Source: a phage | Reading direction: 5' to 3' (one strand) | Assembly: GCA_024682255.1 (NCBI GenBank) | Contig: GCA_024682255.1_4716.1 | DNA: 64,000 nucleotides | In this document: positions 7,715 to 26,728 of the stretch, piece by piece | How the letters are laid out: each line of letters starts with the position of its first letter | How positions within the stretch are numbered: position 1 is the first letter of the stretch | Program-made: the position numbers and the translations under genes | The notes under the pieces: generated by a model | Seen by the model: the letters and a program-made list of their open reading frames with translations, nothing else | Told to the model about the DNA's origin: nothing | The model's database searches: none

Positions 7715-7729
7715 GTTCGATTCCTCGTA

Positions 7730-9087: not shown

Positions 9088-9387
9088 TTAAGGTTTAGGT
9101 TCCGTTTTGTGTTGTGCGAGTAGTATGTTGATCTGCTCCCGTTGTTCTTTTAAGCATGCGGGAAGCTGGTCTTCCCGTACCGTTCCGATTTCCAACGTGA
9201 TGTACCAGCGTTGTTCGGAAGCCTGCCATTGAAAACTGCTCTGTAAACGAAGGATGCTAGGATCACGTACCTTGTTTGCGCTGTAGCGGTTGAACCAAAC
9301 CAGGTAAGCGGCTTTTCCTTCCTCGTCGGCAACGTAACGCTGCACGCTGTTCTTGCCTTTGTTCTCGTATCCTGTTGTACGTATCAT
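9088..9387 (-). CDS. hypothetical protein
   Basis: Start re-assigned to the ATG (MIRTTGYENKG...) that overlaps the upstream TGA as ATGA; ORF track started earlier at 9441 inside the upstream gene. Confidence 0.45.
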   Translation of the reverse strand: MIRTTGYENKGKNSVQRYVADEEGKAAYLVWFNRYSANKVRDPSILRLQSSFQWQASEQRWYITLEIGTVREDQLPACLKEQREQINILLAQHKTEPKP

Positions 9388-10166: not shown

Positions 10167-11093
10167 CTAAAAAGTTCCTCTGTTTCACGTTAATTAAACA
10201 ACGTATTGATTTCTGGTAACGATAACAATCCTAGTGATGTTATCAAAAAGGTAACGCTTACGCGTCGCGTTCATGATGCCATGCATCATGAAGGTAATAT
10301 AGCCGTGAAAGGATTTGTGTTACAGAAAGGGTTTTGTTGTTTTTAAGAAGAGATGGATTTAGAAGAGGTGTTGCAAGCAAGGAAGGTAAACGAGGATAGG
10401 TATTTTGATTTAAGTAAGTAAGATGTTATCTGTATTCGTTAAAAATGTATTGTCTAAGTTATCTTGTTTATCTTAGGTTATGTCTTATTGTTTAATCGTT
10501 TAATATTTTTATCTAAGTAGGTTTAACTCTATCTTGTTTGTATATTTAAATTAATTTAAAGTAGATCAATAAGCTTATCTTCAAAACAATGGATAACATG
10601 TGTTTACTACCTTAACGGTAACACATGTCATCTGTGCATTCACTCCGTTATCACTTCGTTACATGCTTATCAACGTTTTGTCTTCACAAAACGTTCAACT
10701 CAAAAAACCATTTGTGATACTCTTCTTCACGTTGTTCATCAGAGTATCTCGTCTATACTCATTGCATTCGTATACGACATAACCGTTATACGCTAACGCT
10801 ACGCTTATAGCTTGATAACTCTAAGGATAAAAACATAAACTCGCTTCGCTCGTTTAGTTTTTCTTTTTCTTAGAGTTATCCTGTTGCTCGTCTCTAAAGG
10901 ACTTCGCTCCTCCCCCGTCCCCCGAAGGGGCCGAGGTCGTGGAAATTTTACTTTCCAAATACATTTACAACATCTGTAAACTTTTACTCCAGGTACTTAA
11001 TCTTATCATTAGAAATTATAAAAGAGAAGAATAAACACAAACATAAACCTTCCTCCAACCCAACAGGGAAGGAGGAAGGGGGATTAATTAAAA
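10167..11093. other. long AT-rich non-coding region with reiterated TTATCT-type motifs and inverted repeats (regulatory hub, origin or ncRNA candidate)
   Basis: No ORF with RBS support in ~0.9 kb; repeated TTATCTTGTTT / TTATCTAAG motifs around 10.42-10.56 kb; 12-bp inverted repeat GATAACTCTAAG...CTTAGAGTTATC around 10.81-10.88 kb. Confidence 0.5.
11048..11079 (-). terminator. conserved hairpin element, AACCC-N4-GGGAA core (copy), downstream of 11094..11993
   Basis: CCTTCCTCCAACCCAACAGGGAAGGAGGAAGG; on minus strand followed by TTTATGTTTGTGTTTATT; identical 32-mer recurs at ~58629. Confidence 0.55.
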
Positions 11094-11993
11094 TTATACG
11101 GGAGCGTTAACGTTATAACCGAATACTGCTTTACCGTAGGTGTGAGTACCGTCAGCTAACGACAGCACCAGCACATTGCCGTACGTAGCGTTAACGCCCT
11201 TGTCGGTAGACTCGAGGGTATCACCGTTATAGACAAAGGTAGCTGTTTGCAGATTGGCTTTCAGTTCATTGATGATCTCATCACTTACACCGGTCTGCTC
11301 TTTGATCAGGGTGGTCAGGTTACCTGCCAGGCTTTCATCGATCTTGGTTTCGTTACTGGTAATCGCCTGTAAACCTACGCCGTAGATGCTGAAGTCTAAC
11401 GGATAGGTTAACAGACGCGCTGACGTTTTGGTACCATCGCCTTCATCAACGTAGGTTAAGTTACCCAGGTTGGTAACCTTGATGATGTTAGCCAGATCCA
11501 GCGTGGTGTTATAAACTTTAACTTGAACCGAGCCATACCACGCCAACGAATCTTCTTTGGCTTCCAGGGTGATCGTCTGGATACCATGCTGGTCGAAGGT
11601 AACCGGCGTAGCTAACGTTTCGGCTTTGATGTCTTTCGCTTTATCCAGGAACTTCTCACCGGAAGGCGTGATCATACCGTAGCGTTGAGCTACAAGGTCA
11701 ACCACGTCACCAATAGTGGTGTTCGCATTAACGTTAACACGTACAGCGATTTTCTGGAACCACTTAGCCAGATCCAGACGATGGTAGGTAACATCGCGTT
11801 CATTGAAGTAAGGGGTACCTTCACCTGGGCTAAGCGTTAAAGTTGCTTCTGGAGCAGAAGGATTCTTTTCTTTAAGAACGTATTTAAGGTCGGTGTATTT
11901 GAAGCTGGCACCAGTGTCGGCGTTGAGTTTGTTAATCTCATCAACGATAAGTTGCCAAGGTGTTTTTAAAGTAAGCGATACTTGAGCTGTCAT
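11094..11993 (-). CDS. putative virion structural protein, member of YYDR...LAWxGSV paralog family
   Basis: 299-aa ORF with AGAGG RBS; motifs TYHRLDL, AQRYGM, SLAWYGSVQV shared with 12135..12677, 23050..23955, 24872..25723, 25734..26681; monocistronic with hairpin terminator. Confidence 0.6.
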   Translation of the reverse strand: MTAQVSLTLKTPWQLIVDEINKLNADTGASFKYTDLKYVLKEKNPSAPEATLTLSPGEGTPYFNERDVTYHRLDLAKWFQKIAVRVNVNANTTIGDVVDLVAQRYGMITPSGEKFLDKAKDIKAETLATPVTFDQHGIQTITLEAKEDSLAWYGSVQVKVYNTTLDLANIIKVTNLGNLTYVDEGDGTKTSARLLTYPLDFSIYGVGLQAITSNETKIDESLAGNLTTLIKEQTGVSDEIINELKANLQTATFVYNGDTLESTDKGVNATYGNVLVLSLADGTHTYGKAVFGYNVNAPV

Positions 11994-12134
11994 TTTCTAC
12001 CTCTATGGTTGTTACATCACTCTCAAAAGATGTAAGTGTTTACAGAAATTAATATATTTTATATTAGTGTGAATAGTATGGAGAACGACTCCGAATCTCC
12101 TTTTCGACCATCAAAAATCAGAGGACACATAATC

Positions 12135-12677
12135 ATGGACTTAAACTTTAACAAAGCAGCGAAATCCCTTCTGCTTGATCTTATCAACACCAAAGCAACC
12201 CGCACACTGTCTGAAGAAGAACTGCAGTTCGGTACTCCGGCGACATCTTCCGAACATGGAAAGAACACCGTTATTCAGCTGGACGCTGCGCCTGAAGCAG
12301 CTAACCTGCAGGGTAGTCAGCAGTTCTACTACGATCGTCTGGCTCTGTCCGAAGTTTTCGCTGAAGTAACCGGCGATGTTACTTTCGAACTGCCGCACGG
12401 CACTGACAGCATTAAGGCTTCTGAACTGGTAAGCAAGCTGGTCACCAAATTCGGCCTGGCTTCCCTGACCGGTGAAATCAAAGAAGAAACCTTCCAGCTG
12501 TCTGCAGGTACTGTTGGTCGGGTAACCCTGACTGCGATCGAGGGTGGCCTGGTATATACCGGCACTCTGCAGGTTGCACTGACCTACGCAGCTGCACCGA
12601 AAGACCAACTGGCAACCGTTCTGGCGAATAACGTAGCTGATGGCTTCGTGAAACCGACCGTTAGCGCTGTTGGCTAA
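12135..12677 (+). CDS. putative structural protein, short member of YYDR paralog family
   Basis: Start re-assigned to ATG (MDLNFNK...) with AGAGGA RBS; contains FYYDRLAL, VTKFGL, LVYTGTLQV. Confidence 0.5.
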   Translation: MDLNFNKAAKSLLLDLINTKATRTLSEEELQFGTPATSSEHGKNTVIQLDAAPEAANLQGSQQFYYDRLALSEVFAEVTGDVTFELPHGTDSIKASELVSKLVTKFGLASLTGEIKEETFQLSAGTVGRVTLTAIEGGLVYTGTLQVALTYAAAPKDQLATVLANNVADGFVKPTVSAVG

Positions 12678-12685
12678 TAAGCGTG

Positions 12686-12727
12686 TAGAGCAATAGTATG
12701 GGTTTTGTACAGCTCGGCTATTGCTCT
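12686..12727 (+). terminator. stem-loop just after stop of 12135..12677
   Basis: 10-bp inverted repeat AGAGCAATAG...CTATTGCTCT with ~21-nt loop, followed by TCTACAATTTGG. Confidence 0.4.
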
Positions 12728-12876
12728 TCTACAATTTGGTTGTAACAATCTGCGTGGTTGCACGCTTATCTTTCTCATTGAGCGCTTCGTATGAAGCGTG
12801 GTGTTGAAAGGGTTGTGGATCTCCTCAAGCGGCCAGGGACCCAGACCAACCCGAATAAACACGAACACCTGTTAAG

Positions 12877-12908
12877 CCCCTCCTCATCCGTTATTGGGTG
12901 GGGAGGGG
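12877..12908. terminator. C-rich/G-rich hairpin between convergent genes (variant of the conserved class)
   Basis: CCCCTCCTCATCCGTTATTGGGTGGGGAGGGG, followed by TCTTATACGTCTTTATACG. Confidence 0.45.
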
Positions 12909-12971
12909 TCTTATACGTCTTTATACGTTCCGTTCGTTCTGGAGCGTTTTAGGACGGTTTACGGCGGGGTT

Positions 12972-13607
12972 TTACTCAACACTGAACCCGTTCAAACGAA
13001 TAGCTTCATAACGCTTACGTTCACGACGTTTACGTGCCTGCCAACCGTAAATGAACTTCTCGTCTTTCTCACGACGTTCAGCTAATTCGATGTAGTAAGT
13101 GCTCTGCATATCCAGCATCGCGTCGATGAGATAATCTTTACCGGTTTCTCCGCGTTTAGCGATGTAAGCATCAATAGCTGCCAGTGATTTGGGACCCATT
13201 GCACCATCAGCGTCAATATCTTTCCAGTAAGTTTGACGGTTGTTCATGACGTTGAGATAACGCTGGAGGTTCTTAACCGCAACGGTTTTGCCTGCGTTGA
13301 TACCCAGGTCAAAGAGACGGTCAGCTAAAAACACAGAACGTTTCATGACTTCGTCAAGCTTCATCTTATCCCAGAAGTGGGTCTTGTAAATAAAGAACGC
13401 CATGTCGTAAGTAAGGTCACGCATGTTACCGTTCCAGCCGAATTTCGTTTTCAGCGTGGTTTTGTACTGATCGGCGAGTGCTTTCGTGATCCCCATCATG
13501 GTTTCATTTCCACTATCGTCAGGATCGTTAACATATCCTGCTTCGATACTGGTTTTGTCACGAATGATGAATTCGCAGGTAAAATCTTTTTCAGTAATCT
13601 TAGCCAT
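12972..13607 (-). CDS. GH108-family lysozyme-like muramidase with C-terminal peptidoglycan-binding domain (endolysin or virion lysin)
   Basis: N-terminal IEAGYVNDPDDSGNETMMGIT matches the GH108 catalytic signature (E-G-G-Y-x-N-D-P...G-I-T); C-terminal DADGAMGPKSLAAIDAY matches the PG-binding DG-x-x-GP-x-T/S motif; GAGGAG RBS. Confidence 0.7.
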   Translation of the reverse strand: MAKITEKDFTCEFIIRDKTSIEAGYVNDPDDSGNETMMGITKALADQYKTTLKTKFGWNGNMRDLTYDMAFFIYKTHFWDKMKLDEVMKRSVFLADRLFDLGINAGKTVAVKNLQRYLNVMNNRQTYWKDIDADGAMGPKSLAAIDAYIAKRGETGKDYLIDAMLDMQSTYYIELAERREKDEKFIYGWQARKRRERKRYEAIRLNGFSVE

Positions 13608-13650
13608 TAGAACTCCTCGTTGGAATAACGATTTAGAGGAACAGGAAGGG

Positions 13651-13725
13651 TCTAGAACGCGATAAACGATTTAAACCAGGTAAACCCCAGGTTAAACTTT
13701 TCGAAGCGTTACAACGCGTTCTAGA
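13651..13725. promoter_or_regulatory. 11-bp inverted repeat pair (TCTAGAACGCG...CGCGTTCTAGA) between tail fiber stop and lysin start
   Basis: Two copies of the palindromic core GTTCTAGAAC about 60 nt apart in the 126-bp intergenic region. Confidence 0.4.
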
Positions 13726-13733
13726 ACGTTGAA

Positions 13734-15782
13734 TTACATACCCTTGGTTCCTTTCACGTGATGTGCAATTTCTTCAACCATTGCACGCAGAGCACGAAGC
13801 TGTTGATCATGTTCGTACCAACCGCCTAACAGAACCCCACTATACACCATGGTGTCAAGACTTAACAGCCCTTTATCTGATACGTTGATCATTTCAGGGA
13901 ACTGTTCTTGAACACGCTGTGCAATAACACCGATCTTCTCGACATCAGGATCGTAGTTGTGACGGAAACGGGCAAGCCCGCTGCGCGCCATTTCACGTAA
14001 ACGTTCACTGAGAGATTCCGGATGGTCTTTCAGATAACGGATGTCGTGTTTACTACGCTCATCTGAACGGATGTATGCGTTAGGAACATCGATGTTGCTG
14101 TTGAAGTACAGCGCACTACCACCACCTGCAGAGTTCCCCCAATAGAAGCGTGTGATCTCACCGCCACCATTTTCCGTGATGATAACATGTTTACCTAAAC
14201 GTGTACCACCATTACCATCAACGAAGACCAGTTTGTTTCCGCTGTAAGAACCCCAGAACAAACGCGTATCGATGATGTGCGTTGCGGCGAGGCGGGCGTT
14301 ACGTGGTGTAGAATACACGGTGTTAACATCTTGCTGCGCATGCGCATCGGAAGCGATACCATAGTTCTGTACGTTACCCAACCCAACCTGCGCTTTCGTA
14401 ACAGCGTGAGGGTTGTCTCGACGGTTAGCGTGAGCGTTAACCAGATCACCCGCTAATTTCTGAATTGCCCAGTTGGTAGACTGTGGCGTCATGTAACGGT
14501 TAGTTGCAGAACCACCTTGCGCTTCAGCTTGGTTAGCGGTTGGGTAGTTCTCAACACTTCCTAACCCTACTTGTGCTTTAGACACTTGGTGCGGGTTATT
14601 CTTGTCGGCTTTATGCGCATTAAGCGGAACTAACGCAAAGGTCTCAATGGACGCTTTGGTTGTGTTCGGTGCCATTAATCGGTTAGCTGCAACACCGGCA
14701 CGCGCTTCTTCTTCAGAAGCCATCGGATAGTCTTGCACATTACCTAATCCCACCTGCGCCTTGGTCACTCTGTGTGGGTTGTTATAATCGGCTTTGTGCG
14801 CATTAAGTGGAATCAATGCGAATTGTTCAATCGCGGCAACGGTACGTAGCGGTGTCATGAAACGGTTGTTCGCTGTTCCGGCTTTCGCCTCATCATCCGA
14901 AGCGGTCGGGAAGTTATCAACGTTCCCAAGGTTAACCTGTGCTTTGGTGACGCTGTGTGGGTTATCCCGGCGGTTAGCGTGAGCATCGACTAGATCGCCC
15001 GCCAGTTTAGCAATTGCCCATCCAACCGTTTGTGCGGTCATGTATCGGTCAGGTGCGGTACCGGCTTCTGCCTCCGCCTTGTTTGCAGTAGGATAGTTCT
15101 GTACGTTACCTAGTCCGACTTGGGCTTTTGTTACTTCGTGCGGGTTATCGGTACGGTTAGCGTGTGCGTAATGCAGATCGGTCAGATCTTTATCCGCTGC
15201 TTGCATGTCTTTGCGTAGCTGATCGATTGCCGCCCAGAGACGGTTATCGGATGCAGCATCACCGATAAGTATTGCGGCTTTCAGTGAATAGATCGCTAAG
15301 CAAAGATGTTCGGTACCGTAAATAGCACTAACGTGGTGGATGTGTGGTTCAGGCGGATAAAGTTCCGGTTTGTTCTTGATGTCGTCCCAGTTGATCGGAC
15401 GATCGTCAAGTTTGAGTTCTTCGATAGCCTGATACAACGCGTCAATAAGACTTACGTAAACACCACCGATGATACGATAGTCGTTAACTAATGTCCCCTC
15501 GATATCATCGTTGATGATGGCGATGGCTGCACAGATTTCTTTACCTGCGTAAAGCGTCGCATCCTGATACAAGAAAATGGGTTTATAATCCACGCCTCGT
15601 ACCAGTGTCTTACCGGTAAGCTTTTCAGTGATGACCAGACTTTCGGTGAAGAACGGTCCGCCATCAAGGGCGTAACATTTATTCTCGGTTCGTGGAACGG
15701 TATGCTCTTCACCAACGATGTGGTTGCTGGCGAGTGTACCGGTCCAGTCCTCGGGGTACTTCAGGGTAATTGGTGTCGACAT
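13734..15782 (-). CDS. tail fiber protein with five ~60-aa repeats and C-terminal intramolecular chaperone (peptidase S74-like, self-cleaving) domain
   Basis: Five repeats of H-A-N-R-x-D-N-P-H-x-V-T-K-A-Q-V-G-L-G-N-V-x-N-Y; C-terminal YIRSDERSKHDIRYL...GVIAQRVQEQFPEMI matches the S-D-x-R-x-K-x-x-I chaperone-domain signature. Confidence 0.8.
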   Translation of the reverse strand: MSTPITLKYPEDWTGTLASNHIVGEEHTVPRTENKCYALDGGPFFTESLVITEKLTGKTLVRGVDYKPIFLYQDATLYAGKEICAAIAIINDDIEGTLVNDYRIIGGVYVSLIDALYQAIEELKLDDRPINWDDIKNKPELYPPEPHIHHVSAIYGTEHLCLAIYSLKAAILIGDAASDNRLWAAIDQLRKDMQAADKDLTDLHYAHANRTDNPHEVTKAQVGLGNVQNYPTANKAEAEAGTAPDRYMTAQTVGWAIAKLAGDLVDAHANRRDNPHSVTKAQVNLGNVDNFPTASDDEAKAGTANNRFMTPLRTVAAIEQFALIPLNAHKADYNNPHRVTKAQVGLGNVQDYPMASEEEARAGVAANRLMAPNTTKASIETFALVPLNAHKADKNNPHQVSKAQVGLGSVENYPTANQAEAQGGSATNRYMTPQSTNWAIQKLAGDLVNAHANRRDNPHAVTKAQVGLGNVQNYGIASDAHAQQDVNTVYSTPRNARLAATHIIDTRLFWGSYSGNKLVFVDGNGGTRLGKHVIITENGGGEITRFYWGNSAGGGSALYFNSNIDVPNAYIRSDERSKHDIRYLKDHPESLSERLREMARSGLARFRHNYDPDVEKIGVIAQRVQEQFPEMINVSDKGLLSLDTMVYSGVLLGGWYEHDQQLRALRAMVEEIAHHVKGTKGM

Positions 15783-15795
15783 AACCTGGAGGTCC

Positions 15796-18390
15796 TTATA
15801 ACGTGACTGTACCTAATTTGGTTGTCTTATTGAGATTAATGACAGAGATCTGGGTATCGCTGGTCGTAATCGTTCCGATATTAACGCGCTGTCCTTTATC
15901 ATCTTCTTGCTTGTAGATGGTTAACTCCAGTTCTAACTGGTCGCCATTAGGAACAACGGAAACGTACCATGTTTTATTACCTGGTGAGCTATTATAGTCT
16001 TTTAGGTTATAATGGCCTTTAGGTAAGGTCATGACCTTACCGGCAAACAAGCAAGTGATGTCTTCGTTGATGTAGATATCGTAACCGGAAGCAGCAACGA
16101 CCGTAGAAACCATGTAGACATGTTTGACGGTACCTGCGAGGTATTCGGCTACGCTTGGCCCATATGCTCTGAATACCTGTCCGCCATTGGATAAACGGTA
16201 CGCTTCCCCAAGGTCAACGTACCCCAGACCCCATACCGGATGGACGTTGTAACGACGTCCGCTGCTGGCCAAATACTCATAAAGCTCATCTACCGATAAC
16301 CCAACCCACGCACCACTGGCGTTCTTAGCACCACGGAATTGAAAATCGTTTGCGTTTCCTGGAGTAGCAACGCGCACGGACATCGCCCCGGCGATTAACC
16401 AGCCATCAGCGCATTTACGATACCCTAATGGTCCCCACGCCCCCAGAGTGTTATCAATGTTATTGATTTGGTCCCGAGGCGTGTAAGTTACCGTTGTGAC
16501 GACCCCCGTTACGGTAATGTTCCCTTCCCGAGCGCTAGTCGTTACTTCAGACGTCATGATAGCCGCCTTCCTGGAGACAGGATCGTACACCGATATGAAC
16601 ATCAAGCAGGGGGCCCCTGTGGACGCTGGAGGAACCACGATAGAGCCGCGTATAACGGAGTATCTCTCAAGCTTCGGCGACGTGTAGGTATCCCAACAAA
16701 GTTTGGCCGCTCTGTCGAGTTCTGCCTGCGTGATGCTTATCGATGCCCCCTTTAAGGCTAACGTATCAGGGTCGACCTCAACCCTGCTGCTTAATCTCCC
16801 TTCCTGTAACCAGCTACCAGTCACTATCGTCTGGTCGTCGCTCATGTGAATTGTCGCGAAACGTTCGCTCACTGAACCGCCTACGTGGACGCGACTGGTT
16901 GGCGGGAATCCCGTCACATCGACCACGCTGTTCTTATAGCGATAACTCAAATCCCAATCAGTGGTTATTAACCGCTTTTCGAAATTGCTCTGACCCCCTG
17001 GGATGCGGGATAAGACATAGACCTTGTTCTTCGCCGTGAAGCCAACGAAGCCGTGTGGACCACAGGACCCAACAACGCGGTCCATGATGTTAATCCAGTT
17101 CCCCACCTCGTACGCGGATATTGGGGTGAGTTTCGCAAGTTCGTCGAAGACATTACCAGCGTAGTCACCAATGCGATACGATCGAACCATCGGCGAGGCC
17201 AGGTTATCATTCACACAGCTGGTAACCAGACCGTCCTCGCGAATGACCATGTTCCCGGTAAGGTTGCCCCCACCCCATGCCCAGAATCCGTCTTTATAAT
17301 CACGGTCACGAGTTGACATCGTACAAGGGCCACGAAAGGACACCGAACCATCGGAGTTCACTTGTAATGACGGCGTTCCAGCATTGGGACTTAATGTCCA
17401 TTGCTTCGTATCCAGGTTCAAATCGACGTACCAGATCGTTGTCCCCTGGTCGGCGATATTCACGGTACTGTTAGTGTACCATGCCGTCGTGCAGTAGATT
17501 CGCGCAATGTTACCTCTTACAACAGCGTAATTTCGAACACCCGCACGAATAGGGATAAACGTCGTTAATTGACTAGGGTACGCTGTATGGTTTAACACTT
17601 CCCAGAAAAGAATGTGGTCGAGGTTGGTTTTCGTCGTTCCCTCAAAAATCTTTCCACTAAACCCGGTTTCTTTGGTGAACTGTACAGCCGCACCATTTTT
17701 AATGTCCGATAACATACAGGTATGTACATCGAGCCCGTGTTTCCCTTCATATTCCCACCAGACTAACAGGTACACTTTGTTTTTGTAGACGAACGTACTA
17801 CAGCGCGCCATGCTGTTGGTAATACCCTCTACCGACCCGGTACACATAGCGGCGACATGCATCTCTACGTTGAATGTGCCGTTAGTCAGAACGATGTAGG
17901 GCTGTGTGTTCTCGTCGTTTGCGTCCATCGCGATACCCATCATCACGCCGTGGTTATGACACCAGACCGATTGTGGGATTTTAGGTAGTGCTGTAGGGTT
18001 GTACTGGCGACTGGTACCTATGGCGGTATCGAGCAACCCTTCACCATTGTTTTTACAGATAGCGTAATACACCCCGTTTTTCATGCTGTTGGATGCAGAG
18101 CGAAGGATGGAAACACTCCCGTCTGCTTCCTGACAGATTCCGTAGGTACGACGTTCGGTCATGGCTATCGCGCCATCAGCTGACCCTTCGATGGCGAGAG
18201 GGAAGTAACTTTGATCGCCAATTTGTTCGATATCGGTTACGTCAATATCAATGTACTTTTCCATCTCGGTGTTGAACTCTGCAGTGCTGTACGCGCCGAG
18301 ATCGCCAGCCTTTAACCCTGTTGGATTGCTTCTGCTAGCGATGCGCTCGGTAACACTGGTCACCAGTTCGCTAAATTTTTTCATTGCCAT
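15796..18390 (-). CDS. large tail-associated structural protein (putative fiber, spike or baseplate component)
   Basis: 864-aa ORF between two tail fiber genes; G/S/T/N-rich composition; no catalytic motif recognised. Confidence 0.5.
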   Translation of the reverse strand: MAMKKFSELVTSVTERIASRSNPTGLKAGDLGAYSTAEFNTEMEKYIDIDVTDIEQIGDQSYFPLAIEGSADGAIAMTERRTYGICQEADGSVSILRSASNSMKNGVYYAICKNNGEGLLDTAIGTSRQYNPTALPKIPQSVWCHNHGVMMGIAMDANDENTQPYIVLTNGTFNVEMHVAAMCTGSVEGITNSMARCSTFVYKNKVYLLVWWEYEGKHGLDVHTCMLSDIKNGAAVQFTKETGFSGKIFEGTTKTNLDHILFWEVLNHTAYPSQLTTFIPIRAGVRNYAVVRGNIARIYCTTAWYTNSTVNIADQGTTIWYVDLNLDTKQWTLSPNAGTPSLQVNSDGSVSFRGPCTMSTRDRDYKDGFWAWGGGNLTGNMVIREDGLVTSCVNDNLASPMVRSYRIGDYAGNVFDELAKLTPISAYEVGNWINIMDRVVGSCGPHGFVGFTAKNKVYVLSRIPGGQSNFEKRLITTDWDLSYRYKNSVVDVTGFPPTSRVHVGGSVSERFATIHMSDDQTIVTGSWLQEGRLSSRVEVDPDTLALKGASISITQAELDRAAKLCWDTYTSPKLERYSVIRGSIVVPPASTGAPCLMFISVYDPVSRKAAIMTSEVTTSAREGNITVTGVVTTVTYTPRDQINNIDNTLGAWGPLGYRKCADGWLIAGAMSVRVATPGNANDFQFRGAKNASGAWVGLSVDELYEYLASSGRRYNVHPVWGLGYVDLGEAYRLSNGGQVFRAYGPSVAEYLAGTVKHVYMVSTVVAASGYDIYINEDITCLFAGKVMTLPKGHYNLKDYNSSPGNKTWYVSVVPNGDQLELELTIYKQEDDKGQRVNIGTITTSDTQISVINLNKTTKLGTVTL

Positions 18391-18402
18391 TATTCACCTC
18401 AG

Positions 18403-18888
18403 TTAAATCGGCGAATCAGGTAATTGACCATCGACAATCTCGATAGTGGCCACTTTACGTGTCGCAGCAAGATGTGCTGTGCCCTGAACTTTGTTCCAGG
18501 TACCGATACGCATCACGTTTTTATAGCTGCTGTTACTGTCGCTCAATGTGTAAACAAAACCGTTATCCGTGACAGCAAGATAGATCCAACCGGTTGATGC
18601 GCTAACACCAGAAACATCCAACGTGGTCGCGGGAACCGTTCCTGTTATCGTGTTGTATTCCGCTTCACCTTGGCCGATGCTGATCCTCCCGTTGTTGTAG
18701 CTGGCTGCTGGAATTATTTTATTTCGGCTGAAGAAAAGGAACGGAAGATAACGTTGTGTAACAAGAGGCGTAAGTTTAGGAGCCACTTCTGTCTTAGCGT
18801 ACACGTTTGTCTGTGTCGTTGTTACTGAATGAGGATTCTTCTTGGCCAGGTAGGCTCCCCATTCAGAAAGCAATGTCGATAACTTCAT
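18403..18888 (-). CDS. short tail-fiber-like protein (paralog of 18893..19408)
   Basis: 161 aa; N-terminus MKLSTLLSEWGAYLAKKNPHSVTTTQ carries a degenerate fiber repeat motif (NPHxVT). Confidence 0.5.
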   Translation of the reverse strand: MKLSTLLSEWGAYLAKKNPHSVTTTQTNVYAKTEVAPKLTPLVTQRYLPFLFFSRNKIIPAASYNNGRISIGQGEAEYNTITGTVPATTLDVSGVSASTGWIYLAVTDNGFVYTLSDSNSSYKNVMRIGTWNKVQGTAHLAATRKVATIEIVDGQLPDSPI

Positions 18889-18892
18889 ACGG

Positions 18893-19408
18893 CTACCCCA
18901 TGTAACGTTTTTGGCCGAGGATGAAGACCTTGTTAAGGACCACCGAGGTAATGCCTGACGCGTTGCAACTCACCTGCCCAACACGAATCGCTGTTGATGA
19001 ATCAGCCCCAGCACTACTGTTCCAACTCCAGCCGACCGACCCACCTTTCTGATGAATGAAAAGATAACCGGTTCTGTTCGCCCAGTCGGAAGTAAGATTT
19101 TTGATGTCTAGCGTTCCTTTCGCCAGAATATAGTCGGTACCGGAGATCATGACGGGGATTTCAGGATACGAGATTACCGTACCGCTAGCGGTAACGTTGC
19201 TGATGCGATCACTACGGATATCAGTGCAATCACCGAAATACGCTACAGGGAGTATCCCCTTAGGTAGCTTTTTGTCGATTTTTGTATCGACCGTGCTTTT
19301 ATCGGGTGCGTCGATTTGCGCTGCAGTGACTTGGTTAGGGTTATCCTTCCTTGTGTACCATGTCGTCATGCGAGCACCCAATTCACTCATTTTTGTGCCC
19401 ATTTTCAC
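18893..19408 (-). CDS. short tail-fiber-like protein (paralog of 18403..18888)
   Basis: 171 aa; N-terminus MKMGTKMSELGARMTTWYTRKDNPNQVTAAQ carries a degenerate fiber repeat motif. Confidence 0.5.
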   Translation of the reverse strand: MKMGTKMSELGARMTTWYTRKDNPNQVTAAQIDAPDKSTVDTKIDKKLPKGILPVAYFGDCTDIRSDRISNVTASGTVISYPEIPVMISGTDYILAKGTLDIKNLTSDWANRTGYLFIHQKGGSVGWSWNSSAGADSSTAIRVGQVSCNASGITSVVLNKVFILGQKRYMG

Positions 19409-19459
19409 ATCCTATCGAAAAATAAAAAGAAGGAAAGGTGGGTAGAACCCACCCATCCG

Positions 19460-21613
19460 TTATAACGTTTCGAAGTCGGTTGCTTTGATAACCGCGTTGA
19501 AGTTAGCAAGGAATTCCTTAAGCAGTGCTTGGAAGACATCACGAAACGCTGTGTTCGTCTGCAAGCTGGTTAAATAATCGTTCTTAAGGTAATCGCTCAG
19601 CTTACCGATCTTCTGCATCTTCTCGCCGTCTTGGTTCTCTCCAGGTTCTTGGCTGTTGATGTTAACCCATTTGATCCCTTCGAGATCGCCATCGGCAAGG
19701 AAGTTAGCAGGTGTCTCATCGTCGTTCAGGATTTTAATTGTGTCGCTGGATTCAATGCCACCGTAAGCTTCCAGAAGCTGGTTGATGGTCAACTTATTGA
19801 CGTTGATTGAACCATTGACACCATCAATACCGATGCCTGCACCTGTGATGGATGTCGCCGAAAGATCGATCGGTCCGGTTAACTTACCACCGTTGATCGG
19901 TAACGCACCAACTTGCTCAGCGGTGTGTGTATGGTCGGCTAACGCCGCAAACGCCACGATAGACTTATACGTCGAATACGGCGTCATATACGCTGAATGG
20001 TTGGTGTTGTCAACCGCTTCGGTATCGGTAGCGACATTAAAGTTCTGCACGTTGCTGAGACCGACCTGCACCTTCGTTACTTCATGCGGGTTGCTCTTAT
20101 TGACAACGTGTGCTGCAAAACCGTCACCAGCTAAAGCAGTGATTGCCGCTTTTGTCGCAGCCGGTGTCATATAGCGGTTGGTTGCTTCACCCGTTTGCGC
20201 CTCTTCGTCGGAAGCAACAGGATAGTTCTCAACGCTCCCCAAACCGACCTGAGATTTTGTTACTTGGTGTGGGTTTTCGGTATTCGCGATGTGACTACTG
20301 AACCCTTGACCAGCCAGTTGCTCGATTGCGTAACGAACAAGTATTGGTGTCATGTACTTGTTGTTAACTTGACCATCGATAGCTTCTTGGGTGGTAGCAA
20401 CCCCGAAGTTTTGCACGCTCCCCAACCCAACCTGCGCTTTCGTAACGGCGTGAGGGTTATTGGTGTTACCGATGTGATCGGTAACCGTTGGCGTGATTAA
20501 TGCTGCGATAGCGGCTGCCGTGGTCGCAGGGGTCATGTATTTATCGTTAGCAACACCCGCACCAGCTTCTACGTTAGATGCTACACTGTAGTTCGATACA
20601 TTTCCCAACCCAACTTGAGCTTTGGTTACCCCATGAGGGTTATTGGTGTTACCGGTATGGGTTGTCAACGTAGCGTCGACATGATCGATACGCGTGCTTA
20701 AGCCATCGGTGATCGCTCTGATTGCGGCTCGTACACCCGCTGGAGTCGTGTACAGATTTGTGGCCGTACCGGTAATGGTTGCATTACTATCGGCTGTACC
20801 GTAGTTCTCAACGTTTCCGAGTCCCACCTGGGCTTTAGTTACCTTGTGTGGGTTGTTGCGGTTACTGATGTGTGCAGCGGCACTATCACCACTAAGGTTA
20901 GCGATCATCTTACGTGTCATCGCCAACGTCATGTACAGATTTTCACCGACAGTTTCCAGATCGCTCTCGGTCGCTGTTGTGAAGTTCTGCACATTCCCCA
21001 ACCCAACCTGCGCTTTCGTAACGCCATGGGGATTATCGCGACGATTCTCGTGCTGCAGCAATGCGGTCATTGCTTTATTGAACCCTTCTTCAAGCGGTTC
21101 TTTCAATGATTCGATTGCCGCCACCACATCGTCCCACGTCATTGTGTCGGTTTCGACATTATGTTGGTGGTTGATTGGCGGGAATACGGAAGGAACGTCG
21201 GCAACCTTTTCCCAGAACGTAACGCGAGGATCGTAAAGGTTGTTGGCTAAAACGTTAAGAATTTGTTGTTGATCAAGTGTAAACTCACCCCCCAGTGAAT
21301 AGTAGTTCAGTTGCAACTGTCCACTGAATGCGGTGTCCAACAGCATGATGGAACCGTATAATTCCAGGCCGGTCAGCGCAGCCATGGCACGGAAGGGGTG
21401 AGTGCATAAAAAGTCAACGCCTTCTTCCAGATACGCGTTTGTTTCAGGGTTGTAGATCTTTAACCCATTACGAAAATATGGCGCGTATTTAGGAACGAGA
21501 AAGTTAAATCCGGTCCCCGTGGAAGGACGGACAGTGACGAGTTCTTCTGGAACCCATGCGCCATCCAAATTCCCCTGCGGGTTATACGGAAGGCGTTTAA
21601 TTTCATCTGTCAT
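19460..21613 (-). CDS. tail fiber protein with six ~60-aa repeats and HTHT...GG...TG distal domain
   Basis: Six repeats of N-P-H-x-V-T-K-A/S-Q-V-G-L-G-N/S-V-x-N-F/Y; after the last repeat HTHTAEQVGALPINGGKLTG, a signature common in distal tail fiber domains; N-terminus related to 13734..15782. Confidence 0.8.
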   Translation of the reverse strand: MTDEIKRLPYNPQGNLDGAWVPEELVTVRPSTGTGFNFLVPKYAPYFRNGLKIYNPETNAYLEEGVDFLCTHPFRAMAALTGLELYGSIMLLDTAFSGQLQLNYYSLGGEFTLDQQQILNVLANNLYDPRVTFWEKVADVPSVFPPINHQHNVETDTMTWDDVVAAIESLKEPLEEGFNKAMTALLQHENRRDNPHGVTKAQVGLGNVQNFTTATESDLETVGENLYMTLAMTRKMIANLSGDSAAAHISNRNNPHKVTKAQVGLGNVENYGTADSNATITGTATNLYTTPAGVRAAIRAITDGLSTRIDHVDATLTTHTGNTNNPHGVTKAQVGLGNVSNYSVASNVEAGAGVANDKYMTPATTAAAIAALITPTVTDHIGNTNNPHAVTKAQVGLGSVQNFGVATTQEAIDGQVNNKYMTPILVRYAIEQLAGQGFSSHIANTENPHQVTKSQVGLGSVENYPVASDEEAQTGEATNRYMTPAATKAAITALAGDGFAAHVVNKSNPHEVTKVQVGLSNVQNFNVATDTEAVDNTNHSAYMTPYSTYKSIVAFAALADHTHTAEQVGALPINGGKLTGPIDLSATSITGAGIGIDGVNGSINVNKLTINQLLEAYGGIESSDTIKILNDDETPANFLADGDLEGIKWVNINSQEPGENQDGEKMQKIGKLSDYLKNDYLTSLQTNTAFRDVFQALLKEFLANFNAVIKATDFETL

Positions 21614-21644
21614 GATGCGCCCTTTACAAGTTGTTAGTAAGTAT

Positions 21645-21663
21645 GGGATACCCTGGGGTATCC
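21645..21663. promoter_or_regulatory. near-perfect palindrome GGATACCC-t-GGGGTATCC in divergent intergenic region
   Basis: 8-bp inverted repeat between divergent starts at 21613 (-) and 21718 (+). Confidence 0.4.
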
Positions 21664-21717
21664 TGTGTTAACAGCGGTAAAATATTACTGTAACTATAAA
21701 ATAAGGGGGCCTCTCCC

Positions 21718-22998
21718 ATGTATACATTGGTAAAAACTTACGGGTTACCCGTAGGTTCTGGCACGGCCTGGACAGCGCTTGAGGCGGGTGAAAGTGTCCT
21801 GAGTACGTTGTTCTCAACGTATCAAAAACTCAAGATCCAGGTCCATGAAAGCTACGCTGACCAGCAACAAGTTATTGATCTGTACACATTTCAATCCGAG
21901 CTTCAAAACAGCAGTGATACGCTCAATGCGTGGTTGAAAGCGAAATCGGATGCACATACCAACCTTCGAGGACAGCCTGGTGAGCTGTCGATTAAAACCC
22001 ACAAGCTTTATTGTCATGACGCTATTACGGTAGGCTTTCTCCCTAAAGTCGGTAATAGCGGTTATCATCCGAGCAATGCGATCCCTGAGTCGGAACGCAC
22101 TGATATCCTGTTGACGAAAGCGAATACGAATTACGAAAATATCGGCAAACACTGCTTGTTCACCGTAGGCGGTTATGTTCATCCTCACGTCTACGGTAAA
22201 GACGTTGGTGTCTATATCCTGGGTGGGTTCGAGACAGCACAGCGTAGCCAAGAAAACGATATCGGCATGATTGATTTTAGCCGTATCGGGAGTTTGGAAA
22301 TTCATGCTATCACAGAAGAGATGATTGCTGATTCCACGAAGCTCTTGCCGTATAAGGACGAGATGTACTTGCGGTTACCGCGCAAGGTCGCCGAAGATGA
22401 AACCGTTGCGCTGGTGTTCGGGGGATATTTACATCTTCTTGACGATTGTTACACGATCGTTAGCGACACGACAGCAAAAATAAACTGCATTAACATGTTT
22501 CTCTATGAAAGATACTTCCGTTCCCGCAAATACCTTGATCTAACATCTCTTGGTATTCTGTTGAACGAAGAAGACCCACAGTCCGACATTGTTGCCAATC
22601 GTTTATTGTCGGATAAAGCATTAAAAGCGTGGGTGACGCATCCTTGCAGTTTCTGGGTGTATATCAAAGCAACATCGATTCGGGTTACGCAAGAACCTTT
22701 ACCACGAAGTGGTGTACCAGGACAGTATTTCTTAGGTAAGAAACCGGAAGGATTGATTCGGGCCGATCTTGGTGAGTTACCGGCTTACGTGCAGACCTAT
22801 GAAAAACCGTTATGGGTACTTCACTCGCGCTGGGGACTTCGTAAGAACATGTTGTTTGAAAATACGTTGTACAAACATACCCGCGTTAAGCGGCTTAACG
22901 ATACGCCTTATCTTCACCAGGTCTGGTTGGAAACGCATGCGACGTTGCAGACAGTACACAAGCTCGAATTGATCGATTCCAGTCAGAAAAACAAATAA
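21718..22998 (+). CDS. hypothetical protein
   Basis: 426-aa ORF with AAGGGGG RBS; convergent with downstream minus genes; followed by conserved hairpin. Confidence 0.55.
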   Translation: MYTLVKTYGLPVGSGTAWTALEAGESVLSTLFSTYQKLKIQVHESYADQQQVIDLYTFQSELQNSSDTLNAWLKAKSDAHTNLRGQPGELSIKTHKLYCHDAITVGFLPKVGNSGYHPSNAIPESERTDILLTKANTNYENIGKHCLFTVGGYVHPHVYGKDVGVYILGGFETAQRSQENDIGMIDFSRIGSLEIHAITEEMIADSTKLLPYKDEMYLRLPRKVAEDETVALVFGGYLHLLDDCYTIVSDTTAKINCINMFLYERYFRSRKYLDLTSLGILLNEEDPQSDIVANRLLSDKALKAWVTHPCSFWVYIKATSIRVTQEPLPRSGVPGQYFLGKKPEGLIRADLGELPAYVQTYEKPLWVLHSRWGLRKNMLFENTLYKHTRVKRLNDTPYLHQVWLETHATLQTVHKLELIDSSQKNK

Positions 22999-23008
22999 CC
23001 AAACATAA

Positions 23009-23040
23009 CCCTCCTCCAACCCAACAGGGAAGGAGGAGGG
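23009..23040. terminator. conserved hairpin element (AACCC-N4-GGGAA core) between convergent genes
   Basis: CCCTCCTCCAACCCAACAGGGAAGGAGGAGGG flanked by AAACATAA upstream and AATATG downstream. Confidence 0.55.
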
Positions 23041-23049
23041 AATATGCTG

Positions 23050-23955
23050 TTATGCTACATATAGCGTTAGATAACCATCGATGAGCGTATTCATCACACT
23101 GAGTTGGAGTACGACAGCTTTACTAACATCTGTGCGTACACCGAACGGTAGTGTTTTGAATTGCTCTGGATCGGCTATTACTCTCGCATTCTGCAAGTTG
23201 AGTGGTCCAGGCATTGCTGACAGTACCCAGCGATCGTTGACCGTAAGACCGTCGATCTCTTCAGAGAGACCCAATTGCAGCATGTTCATTTCTGCAATTA
23301 GTGCCTCCGATTGCGTATCACCTGAGGTTAACGTATACCCATCGGTAAGTGATGCCAGAACACCAGCAGATACGAACCAGTTGTACGAAACAATAGCGCC
23401 AGGGAGTTTATCACTATCTCGATCGATGAGATAATTCAACCCAGCCAACATATTGTTGCGAATGAGGTTGTTGAGGTCATTATGTCCTGAGGTTAACTCA
23501 ATGAGTAATTGACCAACCCATACTTGGTTACCGGGTTTAGGTGTTATCACAACCTGTATCGGTGACTTGGACTTATCCAGATCCGCGTCGACAATCTCGG
23601 TTTTGTTGAGAAGGATACCGTACGTCGATGCTAAGACAGGTAGGATCTCAGAGACCTTGGTTAGCGCATCTAAGGTTTCGATCTCGATGGGCCAGTGGTG
23701 CTGTCCGCCAGACCAAGTACCTAGTTTACCAAGATCGATACGGTTATAATAGATGTCGACAGAGTTCACCAGCCCTGAACCCGGTTGGGGATGCACGGTT
23801 AACTTGCTGTTACGCTTGTACCCGGTGCTTTCAGAAGCCTCACCGATAACCAGTTTATCCAGCGTTACGCCTCGAGCATCGAAATCGCTATGCTTTCGAA
23901 TCAGCCGAAAGAGGATTTCTTTCGATTCTAACCCCAGGATTTCACTGTACTCCAT
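23050..23955 (-). CDS. putative structural protein, YYDR paralog family member
   Basis: 301 aa; IYYNRIDLG, ASTYGIL, NQVWVGQLLIEL. Confidence 0.55.
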   Translation of the reverse strand: MEYSEILGLESKEILFRLIRKHSDFDARGVTLDKLVIGEASESTGYKRNSKLTVHPQPGSGLVNSVDIYYNRIDLGKLGTWSGGQHHWPIEIETLDALTKVSEILPVLASTYGILLNKTEIVDADLDKSKSPIQVVITPKPGNQVWVGQLLIELTSGHNDLNNLIRNNMLAGLNYLIDRDSDKLPGAIVSYNWFVSAGVLASLTDGYTLTSGDTQSEALIAEMNMLQLGLSEEIDGLTVNDRWVLSAMPGPLNLQNARVIADPEQFKTLPFGVRTDVSKAVVLQLSVMNTLIDGYLTLYVA

Positions 23956-23970
23956 TTAACACCCCTTAGG

Positions 23971-24855
23971 TTACGGTAGGATTTCTGCGCCCGTCGGGCC
24001 TGCCTTACGAGCTTCCAACGCACCAAGGTCGTATTTCAGTGTCAGCGTATCGTTGGTAGTATAAAGGTTGTGGTAAGTCGAAATCAGATCGGTAACCTGC
24101 GCGCCGACGATTTCGTTCATGTCGAAGGTAGAACCTTGACCATCATCAGCACGAACGATTTTGTCACCAGCAGAGACCATCCCAATTTCAGAAATAACCG
24201 CGTACTCTTCACCACCTTCGGTGAGTTTAGCCACATTGAGATATTCGTTAATATCCCACGGCGTCCAAACCAAAGAGACTTTACAGCTATAGTCGTAGTA
24301 CTCCCCGGTCGCTACCAGAATTCCGGTTGTTGGAATATCTGGTCGGGTGGGGTTGAGGTTCGCGTCGGTTGGATGCCATTCGATGGTCTGAGCGACGCCG
24401 TCGACGTATTTGGTATAACGCATGGAGCGGACAACGTTATCGAAATCGATGCGACGACCGTAATAACAGATATACTTTTTACCGCTTTCCAGTGTCTCAA
24501 TACGACGTAACCCAAATCTAGCGCGTTCGTCCGTGGTCAAATCGTTACCAACTTCACGCATCACGAAAGGCTTGATTTTCCACGGTGATAGATCGCTTGC
24601 TTCGTGAGCGATCGGCATCGAGGAAGGGATACCGTTAGCGTTGCGGATGAATTCATGACCTTGGTTGCCGATACAGAAGTAACGTACAGCAGGATTACCC
24701 TCGGGGTAAACCTTTGATTGAATCTGAAGCTTTTCATTCAAGGTGCTGTGTTCTTCCCACGCATGAGGAAGACCGAGCGTAAGATTAGTTTGTACTTGAC
24801 CGCCGATAATCGTACGGACGATACGATCGGTAGCACGGATTTGTGTAGAAGCCAT
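23971..24855 (-). CDS. hypothetical protein (possible divergent member of the same family)
   Basis: 294 aa; CYYGRRIDF and SLVWTPW loosely resemble the family motifs. Confidence 0.5.
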   Translation of the reverse strand: MASTQIRATDRIVRTIIGGQVQTNLTLGLPHAWEEHSTLNEKLQIQSKVYPEGNPAVRYFCIGNQGHEFIRNANGIPSSMPIAHEASDLSPWKIKPFVMREVGNDLTTDERARFGLRRIETLESGKKYICYYGRRIDFDNVVRSMRYTKYVDGVAQTIEWHPTDANLNPTRPDIPTTGILVATGEYYDYSCKVSLVWTPWDINEYLNVAKLTEGGEEYAVISEIGMVSAGDKIVRADDGQGSTFDMNEIVGAQVTDLISTYHNLYTTNDTLTLKYDLGALEARKAGPTGAEILP

Positions 24856-24871
24856 GTCTTTTCCTATTTAA

Positions 24872-25723
24872 TCAGTTATATTGCATCAACAGGATACCGC
24901 CGTAGTTCGTGCAGTAATCTTGGCTAAGCGTAACGATAACAGCGTTAGCGAACGCTGGGTTAACAGGATAACCCTGTGCGATAAGTTCTGTTGTTTTACC
25001 GGTCGCGAGCACGGTGGCTCCGTAAAGGTTGTTTTCATCTTCACGGCCGTTATACACCCACGGGGTTGGCGCAACGTTGTTGAATAAGCTAACCAATGCG
25101 CTTAAGTTACCACCAACTTTTAACCCAGCAAGATCGGAACGGATCGCTGTACAGTCTATAGCGTAACTGTAGACCAGTGCTTGGATACGATTTGCGGTGT
25201 AGTACGGGAAATTGAGACCGGTCATCACCGTGGTCTTCATCATCCCCGCAATATCGTGGGCGCTATCGAGGAGATAGAACGTAACACTTCCTGTCCAAGC
25301 CAATCCGGTTGTTTTCAATTCTACGGTGTGAGGGAACGGATATTCATCACCTCGTACAATCGGAGAATCGACGCAGCTATCCTGATCGATAACGATACCG
25401 TACGTTGATTGGATCAGAGGGATAAGATCGTGCGTCGTTTTAACCCCGGCATCGATAGCAAGCTTCGGTTCCATTCCCAAGAAGAAGTCTTGAATAGGGA
25501 TACGATCGTACCACACGTAGCTGCTTTCACGGTATTGTGCTGGTGTTACTGTTGCCGAAGGCGATACTTTCGCGCGCGTGTTCCGTTTATACGCGTGGTT
25601 TCCGTTTTCAGCAACATCCGTGATATCAATTGCATCGAAGTTAAAGTCGAAGTCAGGATTGGCTGCCTGAATAAGTTCAGCGACCAGTACTTTAGGACTT
25701 TTGTTTAACAATTTCTGACTCAT
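24872..25723 (-). CDS. putative structural protein, YYDR paralog family member
   Basis: 283 aa; VWYDRIPI, QSTYGIV, GLAWTGSVTFYL, C-terminal YCTNYGG. Confidence 0.55.
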   Translation of the reverse strand: MSQKLLNKSPKVLVAELIQAANPDFDFNFDAIDITDVAENGNHAYKRNTRAKVSPSATVTPAQYRESSYVWYDRIPIQDFFLGMEPKLAIDAGVKTTHDLIPLIQSTYGIVIDQDSCVDSPIVRGDEYPFPHTVELKTTGLAWTGSVTFYLLDSAHDIAGMMKTTVMTGLNFPYYTANRIQALVYSYAIDCTAIRSDLAGLKVGGNLSALVSLFNNVAPTPWVYNGREDENNLYGATVLATGKTTELIAQGYPVNPAFANAVIVTLSQDYCTNYGGILLMQYN

Positions 25724-25733
25724 TGTTTATTCC

Positions 25734-26681
25734 TTAGCCTTGTTCTTCTGGAGAACGACCCTGGAGGCTTGCGGTATGTCCGTCGACATTGTAATAGAAA
25801 ATCAATGGACCGCCAACGGCAGTACAGTAGTTTTCATCCAGACTGATCTCGATACCGTATTGGTAACCTGCTCTTGCTGGAATACGTCCGCCTAACTCAC
25901 CGTTGAAAGCCACTTTAGCATTATACAGGTTATACGGTGCGGCGTTGTCGTCTAATACCCAACGATCGGTAGTCATTTCAGCCAGAAGATCGGCGACCAC
26001 CACATCGCTAATAACGGTACCTGTTACCAGCGAAGCCAGCAGTTCACCGTAATCAGAAGTATCACGACTGTAACTGTAGATCTCGCCGCTAGCGCGTACG
26101 CCTTGACCGAAGAACTTAAGACCATCCAGCTCTTTGATCGCGATAATATCATCAAGATTCGGTACACGCGACTTCATCAAGATACGAACGCTCCCCGTCC
26201 AAGCCAGGCAGCTAGATGAAACACGAAGCAATTGTCCGTTAACGGTATCCCAGCTAAGTTCGTCGTTGACGATTTCTTCCGCGGTAAGGCCAAGACCGAA
26301 ACGTTCTTTGATGATAGGCCAGATATCACGCATCTTGGTAGCGTCTGGCGCATCGATAAGAATAGGCGCTACGTTACGCAGATACGCACCGATGTTAATA
26401 CGATCGTAATACAGCGTCGTCGAACCTTCATAATCGTCTAACTCGGTAAGCTTAGCGGTTGCCGTTGCCGTAATCTGGGTGTCGCGCTCATAGGCGCTTT
26501 GGTTGGTGGTTGGTGTTCCTAAAACCAATAATTCAGGGGTTAGAACATGCTCTCCGTTCTGAGGTGGGTTATCGTGGTTGATAAGACCATACACGAGATC
26601 GGATGAGGGTAAAGAGACGTCGACCGGGTAAAGTTCGGTGTCGTCAATAATTGTTACCGTATCACTCACGGTGACCTCCAC
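25734..26681 (-). CDS. putative structural protein, YYDR paralog family member
   Basis: 315 aa; LYYDRINIG, KERFGLGL, CLAWTGSVRILM, C-terminal YCTAVGG. Confidence 0.55.
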   Translation of the reverse strand: MEVTVSDTVTIIDDTELYPVDVSLPSSDLVYGLINHDNPPQNGEHVLTPELLVLGTPTTNQSAYERDTQITATATAKLTELDDYEGSTTLYYDRINIGAYLRNVAPILIDAPDATKMRDIWPIIKERFGLGLTAEEIVNDELSWDTVNGQLLRVSSSCLAWTGSVRILMKSRVPNLDDIIAIKELDGLKFFGQGVRASGEIYSYSRDTSDYGELLASLVTGTVISDVVVADLLAEMTTDRWVLDDNAAPYNLYNAKVAFNGELGGRIPARAGYQYGIEISLDENYCTAVGGPLIFYYNVDGHTASLQGRSPEEQG

Positions 26682-26728
26682 GCCAGGAATTAATTAAAAA
26701 AGACTTTACGATTTGCTGCACTATCACG

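Follow-up and report, generated by a model that had tools for sequence, protein, structure and literature searches.

The 64,000-nucleotide stretch of phage DNA analysed here (contig GCA_024682255.1_4716.1 of NCBI GenBank assembly GCA_024682255.1), referred to below as the window, carries between positions 11,094 and 26,681 a dispersed set of five paralogous open reading frames (ORFs) that almost certainly encode virion proteins of the DUF7941 family. We consider it moderately likely that these proteins assemble into mixed-subunit filaments anchored at the spoke tips of the peripheral baseplate, where they would serve in host capture. Judged from its sequence, the window belongs to a Goslar-like, nucleus-forming jumbo phage (chimallivirus) that is distinct from Goslar itself. 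Specifically, positions 11000-27000 share 94.5% nucleotide identity, covering 87% of the length, with Escherichia phage vB_EcoM_Goslar (NC_048170, 237 kb, genus Goslarvirus), and the order and strands of the window genes are identical to those of Goslar gp21-gp35, whose names are used here for the homologs. The family is already known, both as a Pfam DUF entry and from an April 2026 description in this phage; because that preprint covers a near-identical phage, the paralog family reported here must count as already described. An initial annotation of the window, which could not match the family to anything known, is in this respect out of date.

All six ORFs flagged by the initial annotation as a family of five to six paralogs are present at the coordinates it gave, and five of them independently exceed the gathering cutoff of Pfam PF25613 (DUF7941), which is 27 bits, with scores of 78.6-216.5 bits (E 7e-22 to 6.5e-64; Table 1). 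The same five match phrog_1037/2935, described as 'virion structural protein'. Pairwise BLASTP comparisons within the five give 22-27% identity and E values from 1e-5 to 6e-19, with the exception of the pair starting at 11094 and 12135 (direct E 0.2-0.4), for which the profile and the other members provide the sole link. The ordered motif series on which the family had been proposed is borne out by the alignments: the Y and R of YYDR are invariant, each of the two elements (F/Y)G and LAWxGSV keeps its glycine in all five members, the L and W of LAW are conserved at 90% or more in a 15-sequence alignment, and the YCTxxGG element does occur in two members. A hidden Markov model built from the five and searched against all six-frame ORFs recovered exactly these five, with no further member in the window at E <= 10. 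For the last of the five, the gp34 homolog, a GTG start at 26669 is likelier than the GTG at 26681 given initially, as it has GGAGG 5 nt upstream and yields 311 amino acids as in Goslar; the 26681 start adds four codons.

That the shared motifs reflect chance resemblance among unrelated ORFs is scarcely credible for these five. The non-significant direct comparison of 11094-11993 with 12135-12677 points that way, but five independent Pfam matches and a single fold for the two members that were modelled speak decisively for common descent. Chance does account for the sixth ORF, 23971..24855, which had been listed with a hedge and is rejected as a family member: it has no DUF7941 match and no BLASTP similarity to the five, and it belongs to another Pfam family. 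The paralog observation thus holds for five ORFs and fails for the sixth; it is real, ordinary and already known.

Structure predictions place the shared motifs in one domain. The AlphaFold 2 model of the 25734-26681 product (mean predicted local distance difference test score, pLDDT, 78) comprises a confident N-terminal domain (NTD, residues 20-170) and a confident C-terminal domain (CTD, residues 195-300) separated by a linker at residues 172-194 with pLDDT below 50, whereas the model of the short member, 12135-12677, consists of an NTD and a helical tail (pLDDT 82.8, predicted template modelling score 0.71); in the alignment this protein ends after the linker motif. The NTD-linker-CTD architecture applies to four members, and the three members without a model were assigned from the alignment. 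The YYDR, (F/Y)G and LAWxGSV motifs all lie within the globular domain at the N-terminus, and the linker contains a semi-conserved (D/N)(L/I)xxhhxxxxhxGLx(F/Y) segment. The sole solved chain matched by the two modelled members is the NTD of PhiKZ gp127 (PDB 9xqd chain 0; by Foldseek for the gp34 homolog), and the five-member profile also matches PHIKZ127 in sequence (E 2.3e-17). Because both modelled members share the gp127 NTD fold, the possibility that the ORFs have unrelated folds fails for these two; for the other three, kinship stands on full-length Pfam matches.

The experimental record on the orthologs comes from Goslar and PhiKZ. Basu et al. (bioRxiv 10.64898/2026.04.21.720040) describe ten DUF7941 proteins in Goslar (gp22, 23, 31, 33, 34, 86, 91, 92, 93 and 161) and report virion association of the orthologs from mass spectrometry, with about 2140 copies of gp23 and about 580 of gp22 per virion, and, in their Table S4, about 112 of gp33, 27 of gp34 and 8 of gp31. 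Among the Goslar orthologs of the five paralogs, gp31 is thus the one with the lowest copy number, and gp23 is the most abundant virion-associated protein left unmodelled. The same authors observed filaments of purified recombinant gp22 in negative stain, predicted head-to-tail dimers of DUF7941 proteins with AlphaFold 3, fitted a gp126-gp127 dimer into unexplained PhiKZ density and proposed a baseplate-anchored 'DUF7941 fiber cloud' for host recognition (bioRxiv 10.64898/2026.04.21.720040). In the PhiKZ structural atlas, cryo-electron microscopy places gp127 in the outer peripheral baseplate, where a band of five gp139 dimers runs from the wedge protein gp128 to gp127, gp139 dimer A touches gp128, and gp130 connects the star lobes (PMC13250141). 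The initial guess that such an expansion in a structural region indicates decoration, fiber or adaptor proteins gains support from the tail-fiber and peripheral-baseplate genes next to the paralogs, from the virion orthologs in Goslar and from PhiKZ gp127 as an adaptor at the spoke tip.

The window proteins correspond closely to Goslar gp22, gp23, gp31, gp33 and gp34, with the same order, strands and lengths, 88-98% amino acid identity, the same Pfam family and matching neighbours (endolysin, fiber genes, gp32 spoke and gp35 wedge). The resemblance to PhiKZ is more remote: gp127 and gp126 share about 20% identity with the window members, gp126 consists of the NTD alone without the linker tail, PhiKZ has about three DUF7941 members compared with ten in Goslar, and the cited PhiKZ literature contains no report of a high-copy filament. 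The gene context is nevertheless alike, in that the homologs of gp128, gp139 and gp130 are interleaved with three of the paralogs (the gp31, gp33 and gp34 homologs) in the window, just as gp126/gp127 adjoin gp128 in PhiKZ.

Under the filament model, the linker of one protomer, together with the CTD where present, would dock on the NTD of the next, and such docking would generate flexible, head-to-tail filaments of mixed subunits. Each of the six gp32 spokes in the peripheral baseplate would anchor them at its tip. The conserved low-copy operon members (the gp31, gp33 and gp34 homologs) would serve, like PhiKZ gp127/gp126, as anchors or adaptors, and the fast-evolving gp22 and gp23 homologs, each expressed from its own transcription unit, would provide the bulk filament subunits. 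The spoke protein encoded by the gp32 homolog is a likely docking partner for a DUF7941 anchor. Lectin or hydrolase domains occur in other family members, encoded outside the window, so the filaments would extend the distance over which host cells are captured. T4 fibritin whiskers, Hoc-type immunoglobulin (Ig) decorations and chaperone-usher pili offer analogies for long-reach, low-affinity host capture and for donor-segment polymerisation. As a whole, we regard the model as plausible but not proven. Our own analysis contributes homology, the fold shared by the two modelled members, synteny, evolutionary rates and the tandem and lectin-fused architectures; the copy numbers, the gp22 filaments and the baseplate position of gp127 are taken from the literature on the orthologs. 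We infer which paralog anchors, which polarity the filament has, that the bulk filaments are attached to the virion and that they take part in host recognition.

The division between bulk subunits and anchors is mirrored in the rates of protein evolution. Across every pairing of the window, Goslar and two IMG/VR contigs, four Goslar-like genomes in all, the ratio of nonsynonymous to synonymous substitution rates (dN/dS) is 0.30-0.58 for gp22 (six pairs) and 0.33-0.62 for gp23, against 0.12-0.22 for gp31, 0.04-0.09 for gp33 and 0.05-0.13 for gp34; the neighbouring gp25, gp29, gp30, gp32 and gp35 fall at 0.02-0.12. The proteins of the two high-copy members therefore evolve 3-10 times faster than those of the three operon members, which is a new observation. 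Between the window and Goslar, the gp22 and gp23 homologs differ by 11-12% at the protein level, where the nucleotide divergence is only about 7%, the C-terminus of gp22 reading …YNVNAPV versus …YNTAD, and the ratio of nonsynonymous to synonymous codons is 53:30 for the high-copy members versus 18:79 (Fisher p 5e-10). Synonymous divergence (dS) is equal for fast and slow genes, at about 0.12-0.15, so the excess represents amino-acid change rather than recombination from a distant lineage. In one genome, gp23 has been replaced by an allele with only about 50% identity. Along these divergent gp23 alleles, identity is 71% at residues 1-48 and 64% at residues 135-180 but 32.5% in the middle, by a segmentation made post hoc; conserved ends and a diverged middle would fit end-to-end contacts with a free, exposed surface.

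The family extends well beyond the window. Its profile matches 2536 cluster representatives at E <= 1e-3, all metagenomic and without taxonomy. The best 159 of these include 110 full-length forms, 10 short NTD-only forms, 18 chains with two or three tandem NTD units at a spacing of about 170-180 amino acids, and several with C-terminal extensions. Pfam searches of metagenomic members confirm chains with three DUF7941 copies and others in which the module is fused to Laminin_G_3 lectin and to He_PIG Ig-like domains. The covalent NTD tandems lend indirect support to beads-on-a-string assembly, and the lectin fusions support a binding role. A tblastn search found matches in 64 phage records, and all those among the matches listed are jumbo phages of 218-312 kb. 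The Goslar preprint considers the DUF7941 module exclusive to chimalliviruses (bioRxiv 10.64898/2026.04.21.720040), which conflicts with InterPro DUF7941 hits reported in Spiroplasma Spaid-like secreted proteins and in 'Salmonella' (PMC13375240).

Several observations weigh against anchored filaments. The Goslar baseplate map contains no DUF7941 density, only recombinant gp22 has been seen to form filaments, the head-to-tail interface is an AlphaFold prediction, and the virion preparation also held chimallin fragments and PhuZ filaments (bioRxiv 10.64898/2026.04.21.720040), so that filaments of gp22 and gp23 could merely have co-purified. The window counterpart of PhiKZ gp127 is ambiguous, its best BLASTP matches being the gp22, gp33 and gp34 homologs, with no match to the gp31 homolog. 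The rate data also leave latitude: a dN/dS that is high and still below 1 fits relaxed constraint as readily as diversifying selection, the contrast between the ends and the middle of gp23 depends on that post hoc segmentation, and a stricter test, of whether the invariant run at the linker is longer than expected among the close genomes, gave no significant result (P 0.12 and 0.41). Lastly, PhiKZ gp143, which has been assigned to the same family, is experimentally linked to holin regulation (PMC12894885). The main rival to the filament model builds on the first of these points and holds that the filaments made by the gp22 and gp23 homologs are free in the cytoplasm or outside the cell, are unattached to the baseplate and reach virion preparations by co-purification. 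Their purpose would be a different one, for example bundling tails in the intracellular virion 'bouquets' of chimalliviruses, leaving the low-copy operon members as the sole genuine baseplate parts. Besides the contaminated preparation and the empty baseplate map, it can appeal to the ability of recombinant gp22 to polymerise alone and to copy numbers that imply filaments about 3 micrometres long, never reported on the micrographs cited in the preprint. We nonetheless judge it unlikely, if clearly worth keeping in view, because gp127 is modelled in the PhiKZ baseplate density and the gp126-gp127 dimer fits unexplained density there, because the lectin and Ig-like fusions indicate an extracellular binding role, and because the tail-bundling 'bouquet' idea is speculation. 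Far less probable is a location inside the head or among ejected proteins. PHROG places phrog_1037, 2935 and 3589 in its 'head and packaging' category, and the copy numbers are high, as for the inner-body PF12699 proteins; against this, that category is coarse labelling that accompanies the description 'virion structural protein', PhiKZ gp127 sits in the outer peripheral baseplate, the genes lie among baseplate and fiber genes outside the head-protein cluster, and lectin fusions would make no sense inside a capsid.

The holin connection bears on the short member. In plasmid assays, PhiKZ gp143 (177 amino acids, encoded directly upstream of the endolysin gp144) advances or blocks triggering of the gp142 holin (PMC12894885), and its gene tolerates transposon insertions. 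The Goslar preprint classes gp143 as DUF7941 (bioRxiv 10.64898/2026.04.21.720040); in our searches its match to the family is weak and in register (Pfam 18.3 bits, E 0.0017, below the cutoff; hhalign E 0.007), and no BLASTP or phmmer match connects it to any window ORF. Membership of a 'filament' family and the published role as a lysis regulator are thus in conflict for gp143. Were the short member, 12135-12677, a cytoplasmic holin regulator of this kind, it would control lysis timing instead of, or besides, contributing to filaments, and the two proteins do resemble each other in being short, adjacent to an endolysin gene and annotated as virion-associated. We nevertheless find this improbable: gp143 remains below the Pfam threshold and lacks direct similarity to the short member, and its gene is part of a holin-spanin-endolysin cassette read in one direction, an arrangement absent from the window. 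A search of the window for the gp142 holin and the PhiKZ spanins found no homolog, and the endolysin there (GH108 plus PG_binding_3) belongs to a family different from that of gp144 and is encoded convergently with the gp23 homolog. The abundance of gp23 in Goslar virions would also be unexpected for a pure lysis regulator. Slightly less probable still is a gp23 homolog with two jobs, acting as bulk filament subunit and using that NTD docking surface also to bind the cytoplasmic domain of the holin, a binding reported for PhiKZ gp143. In that case lysis timing would be tied to the free subunit left after virion assembly, and selection acting on a filament surface exposed towards the host would account for the high dN/dS and the allele replacement.

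Table 1. DUF7941 genes of the window with neighbouring baseplate genes and intergenic elements (positions in the 64,000-nucleotide window).
Feature	Coordinates	Strand	Evidence and remarks
gp22 ortholog, full-length DUF7941, 299 aa	11094..11993	-	PF25613 173.5 bits, E 8e-51; 88-89% aa identity to Goslar gp22
gp23 ortholog, short DUF7941, 180 aa (NTD + linker, no CTD)	12135..12677	+	PF25613 78.6 bits, E 7e-22; adjoins endolysin gene
gp31 ortholog, full-length DUF7941, 301 aa	23050..23955	-	PF25613 188.6 bits, E 2e-55; 97% identity to gp31; last gene of baseplate operon
gp33 ortholog, full-length DUF7941, 283 aa	24872..25723	-	PF25613 164.3 bits, E 5.5e-48; 98% identity to gp33
gp34 ortholog, full-length DUF7941, 311 aa	25734..26669	-	PF25613 216.5 bits, E 6.5e-64 (scored as 25734-26681)
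Baseplate spoke protein (DUF7208), Goslar gp32 / PhiKZ gp139 homolog	23971..24855	-	PF23838 324 bits, E 8e-97
Baseplate wedge protein, Goslar gp35 / PhiKZ gp128 homolog	26729..29140	-	35% identity to PhiKZ gp128, E 7e-119; 99% to Goslar gp35
Peripheral-baseplate protein, Goslar gp30 / PhiKZ gp130 homolog	21718..22998	+	24% identity to PhiKZ gp130, E 7e-27
Hairpin, likely terminator for both convergent genes (gp23 homolog, endolysin)	12873..12913	both	-32 kcal/mol (z -5.75) on +; -24.3 (z -4.6) on -
Intrinsic-terminator-like hairpin and U-tract	11046..11077	-	-24.5 kcal/mol, z -5.4, then UUUAUGUUUGUGUUUAUU; inverted repeat; 17 nt past gp22-homolog stop
AT-rich divergent intergenic region, 141 nt, common to gp22 and gp23 homologs, presumed promoter region	11994..12134	.	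Sequence reading

The rejected sixth ORF is itself a baseplate gene: its product is 99% identical to the solved chain 11lx_Aa and matches PHIKZ139 at E 2.9e-43. The gp31, gp33 and gp34 homologs lie within the same tightly packed operon as this spoke gene, gp35-gp34-gp33-gp32-gp31, of which the wedge gene is the first. A homolog of PhiKZ gp140 (1257-1931 on the minus strand; phmmer E 1.9e-16) lies about 22 kb from the spoke gene, unlike PhiKZ gp140, which directly follows the spoke gene gp139.

The gp22 and gp23 homologs are each a single-gene unit, since each has its own hairpin and its own strand and gap context. For the short member, described initially as monocistronic with its own terminator and promoter-like region, the first two elements hold, as it is the sole plus-strand gene between two minus-strand genes and is followed by a strong hairpin, at a site equivalent to one annotated as a terminator in Goslar. 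Its ATG at 12135 is preceded at 9 nt by the ribosome-binding site AGAGGA. On the promoter-like part, a sigma-70 scan of 10100-13800 was uninformative, with 7 sites against 6.0 expected, which is the chance level; chimalliviruses use RNA polymerases of their own. The 10-mer AATAGTATGG at 12072-12081, 54 nt upstream of that ATG, is repeated at 12692-12701, 15 nt after the stop of the same gene (plus strand), and its core AGTATGG recurs at 21640-21646 (plus strand) in the divergent region upstream of the plus-strand gene at 21718. As a candidate promoter motif, AATAGTATGG / AGTATGG has six copies in the window, three of them intergenic, a total not above chance, and a search for shared k-mers in nine upstream regions found none present in at least three. 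Between the gp21 and gp22 homologs, 10167-11093 is a gene-free, AT-rich segment of 927 nt (GC about 0.41) with hairpins, for example at 10814-10880, 10592-10632, 10270-10292 and 10672-10695; it bears no annotation in Goslar, shows 83-93% conservation in a related contig and has no Rfam or tRNA match, in line with Rfam and tRNA scans of the window, which returned no matches.

Other genes around the paralogs also vary between relatives. The gp21 homolog (9384-10166, minus strand), at the edge of the structural block, is fast-changing: it shares 66% identity with Goslar gp21 and 48% with its counterpart in a third genome, and its dN/dS is 0.23-0.47. The gp26 homolog (15796-18390, minus strand; 864 amino acids), for which no Pfam match was found, is 52% identical to gp26 of Goslar and two other Goslar-like genomes, with saturated synonymous sites, and the gp26 proteins of those three genomes are 96-98% identical to one another. 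As this looks like a window-specific module swap between two conserved fiber genes, the gp26 homolog is a candidate host-range determinant. The small genes beside it, 18403-18888 and 18893-19402, are 84-91% identical with raised dS, and both ORFs start with a related NPxxVT motif. The large paralogous fiber proteins encoded at 13734-15782 and 19460-21613 on the minus strand (the gp25 and gp29 homologs) carry several copies of an NPHxVTKAQVGLGNVxN(Y/F) unit, and across these repeats the two share 38-48% identity; the product of 13734-15782 has a Peptidase_S74 intramolecular chaperone domain at its end. The contig IMGVR_UViG_3300045988_173921 has, between its homologs of the endolysin and gp25, about 1.2 kb of extra DNA (7473-8642) without a counterpart in the window.

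Because the Pfam entry and the April 2026 Goslar description already exist, our results do not add a new kind of system. They add leads for chimallivirus adsorption and lysis, namely the opposition between fast-evolving bulk subunits and slowly evolving anchors, the tandem and lectin-fused forms of the family and the conflicting annotation of gp143. If the model of baseplate-anchored DUF7941 filaments is true, thousands of copies per virion would build a cloud of filaments on the micron scale, and no other phage is known to capture hosts with such a device.

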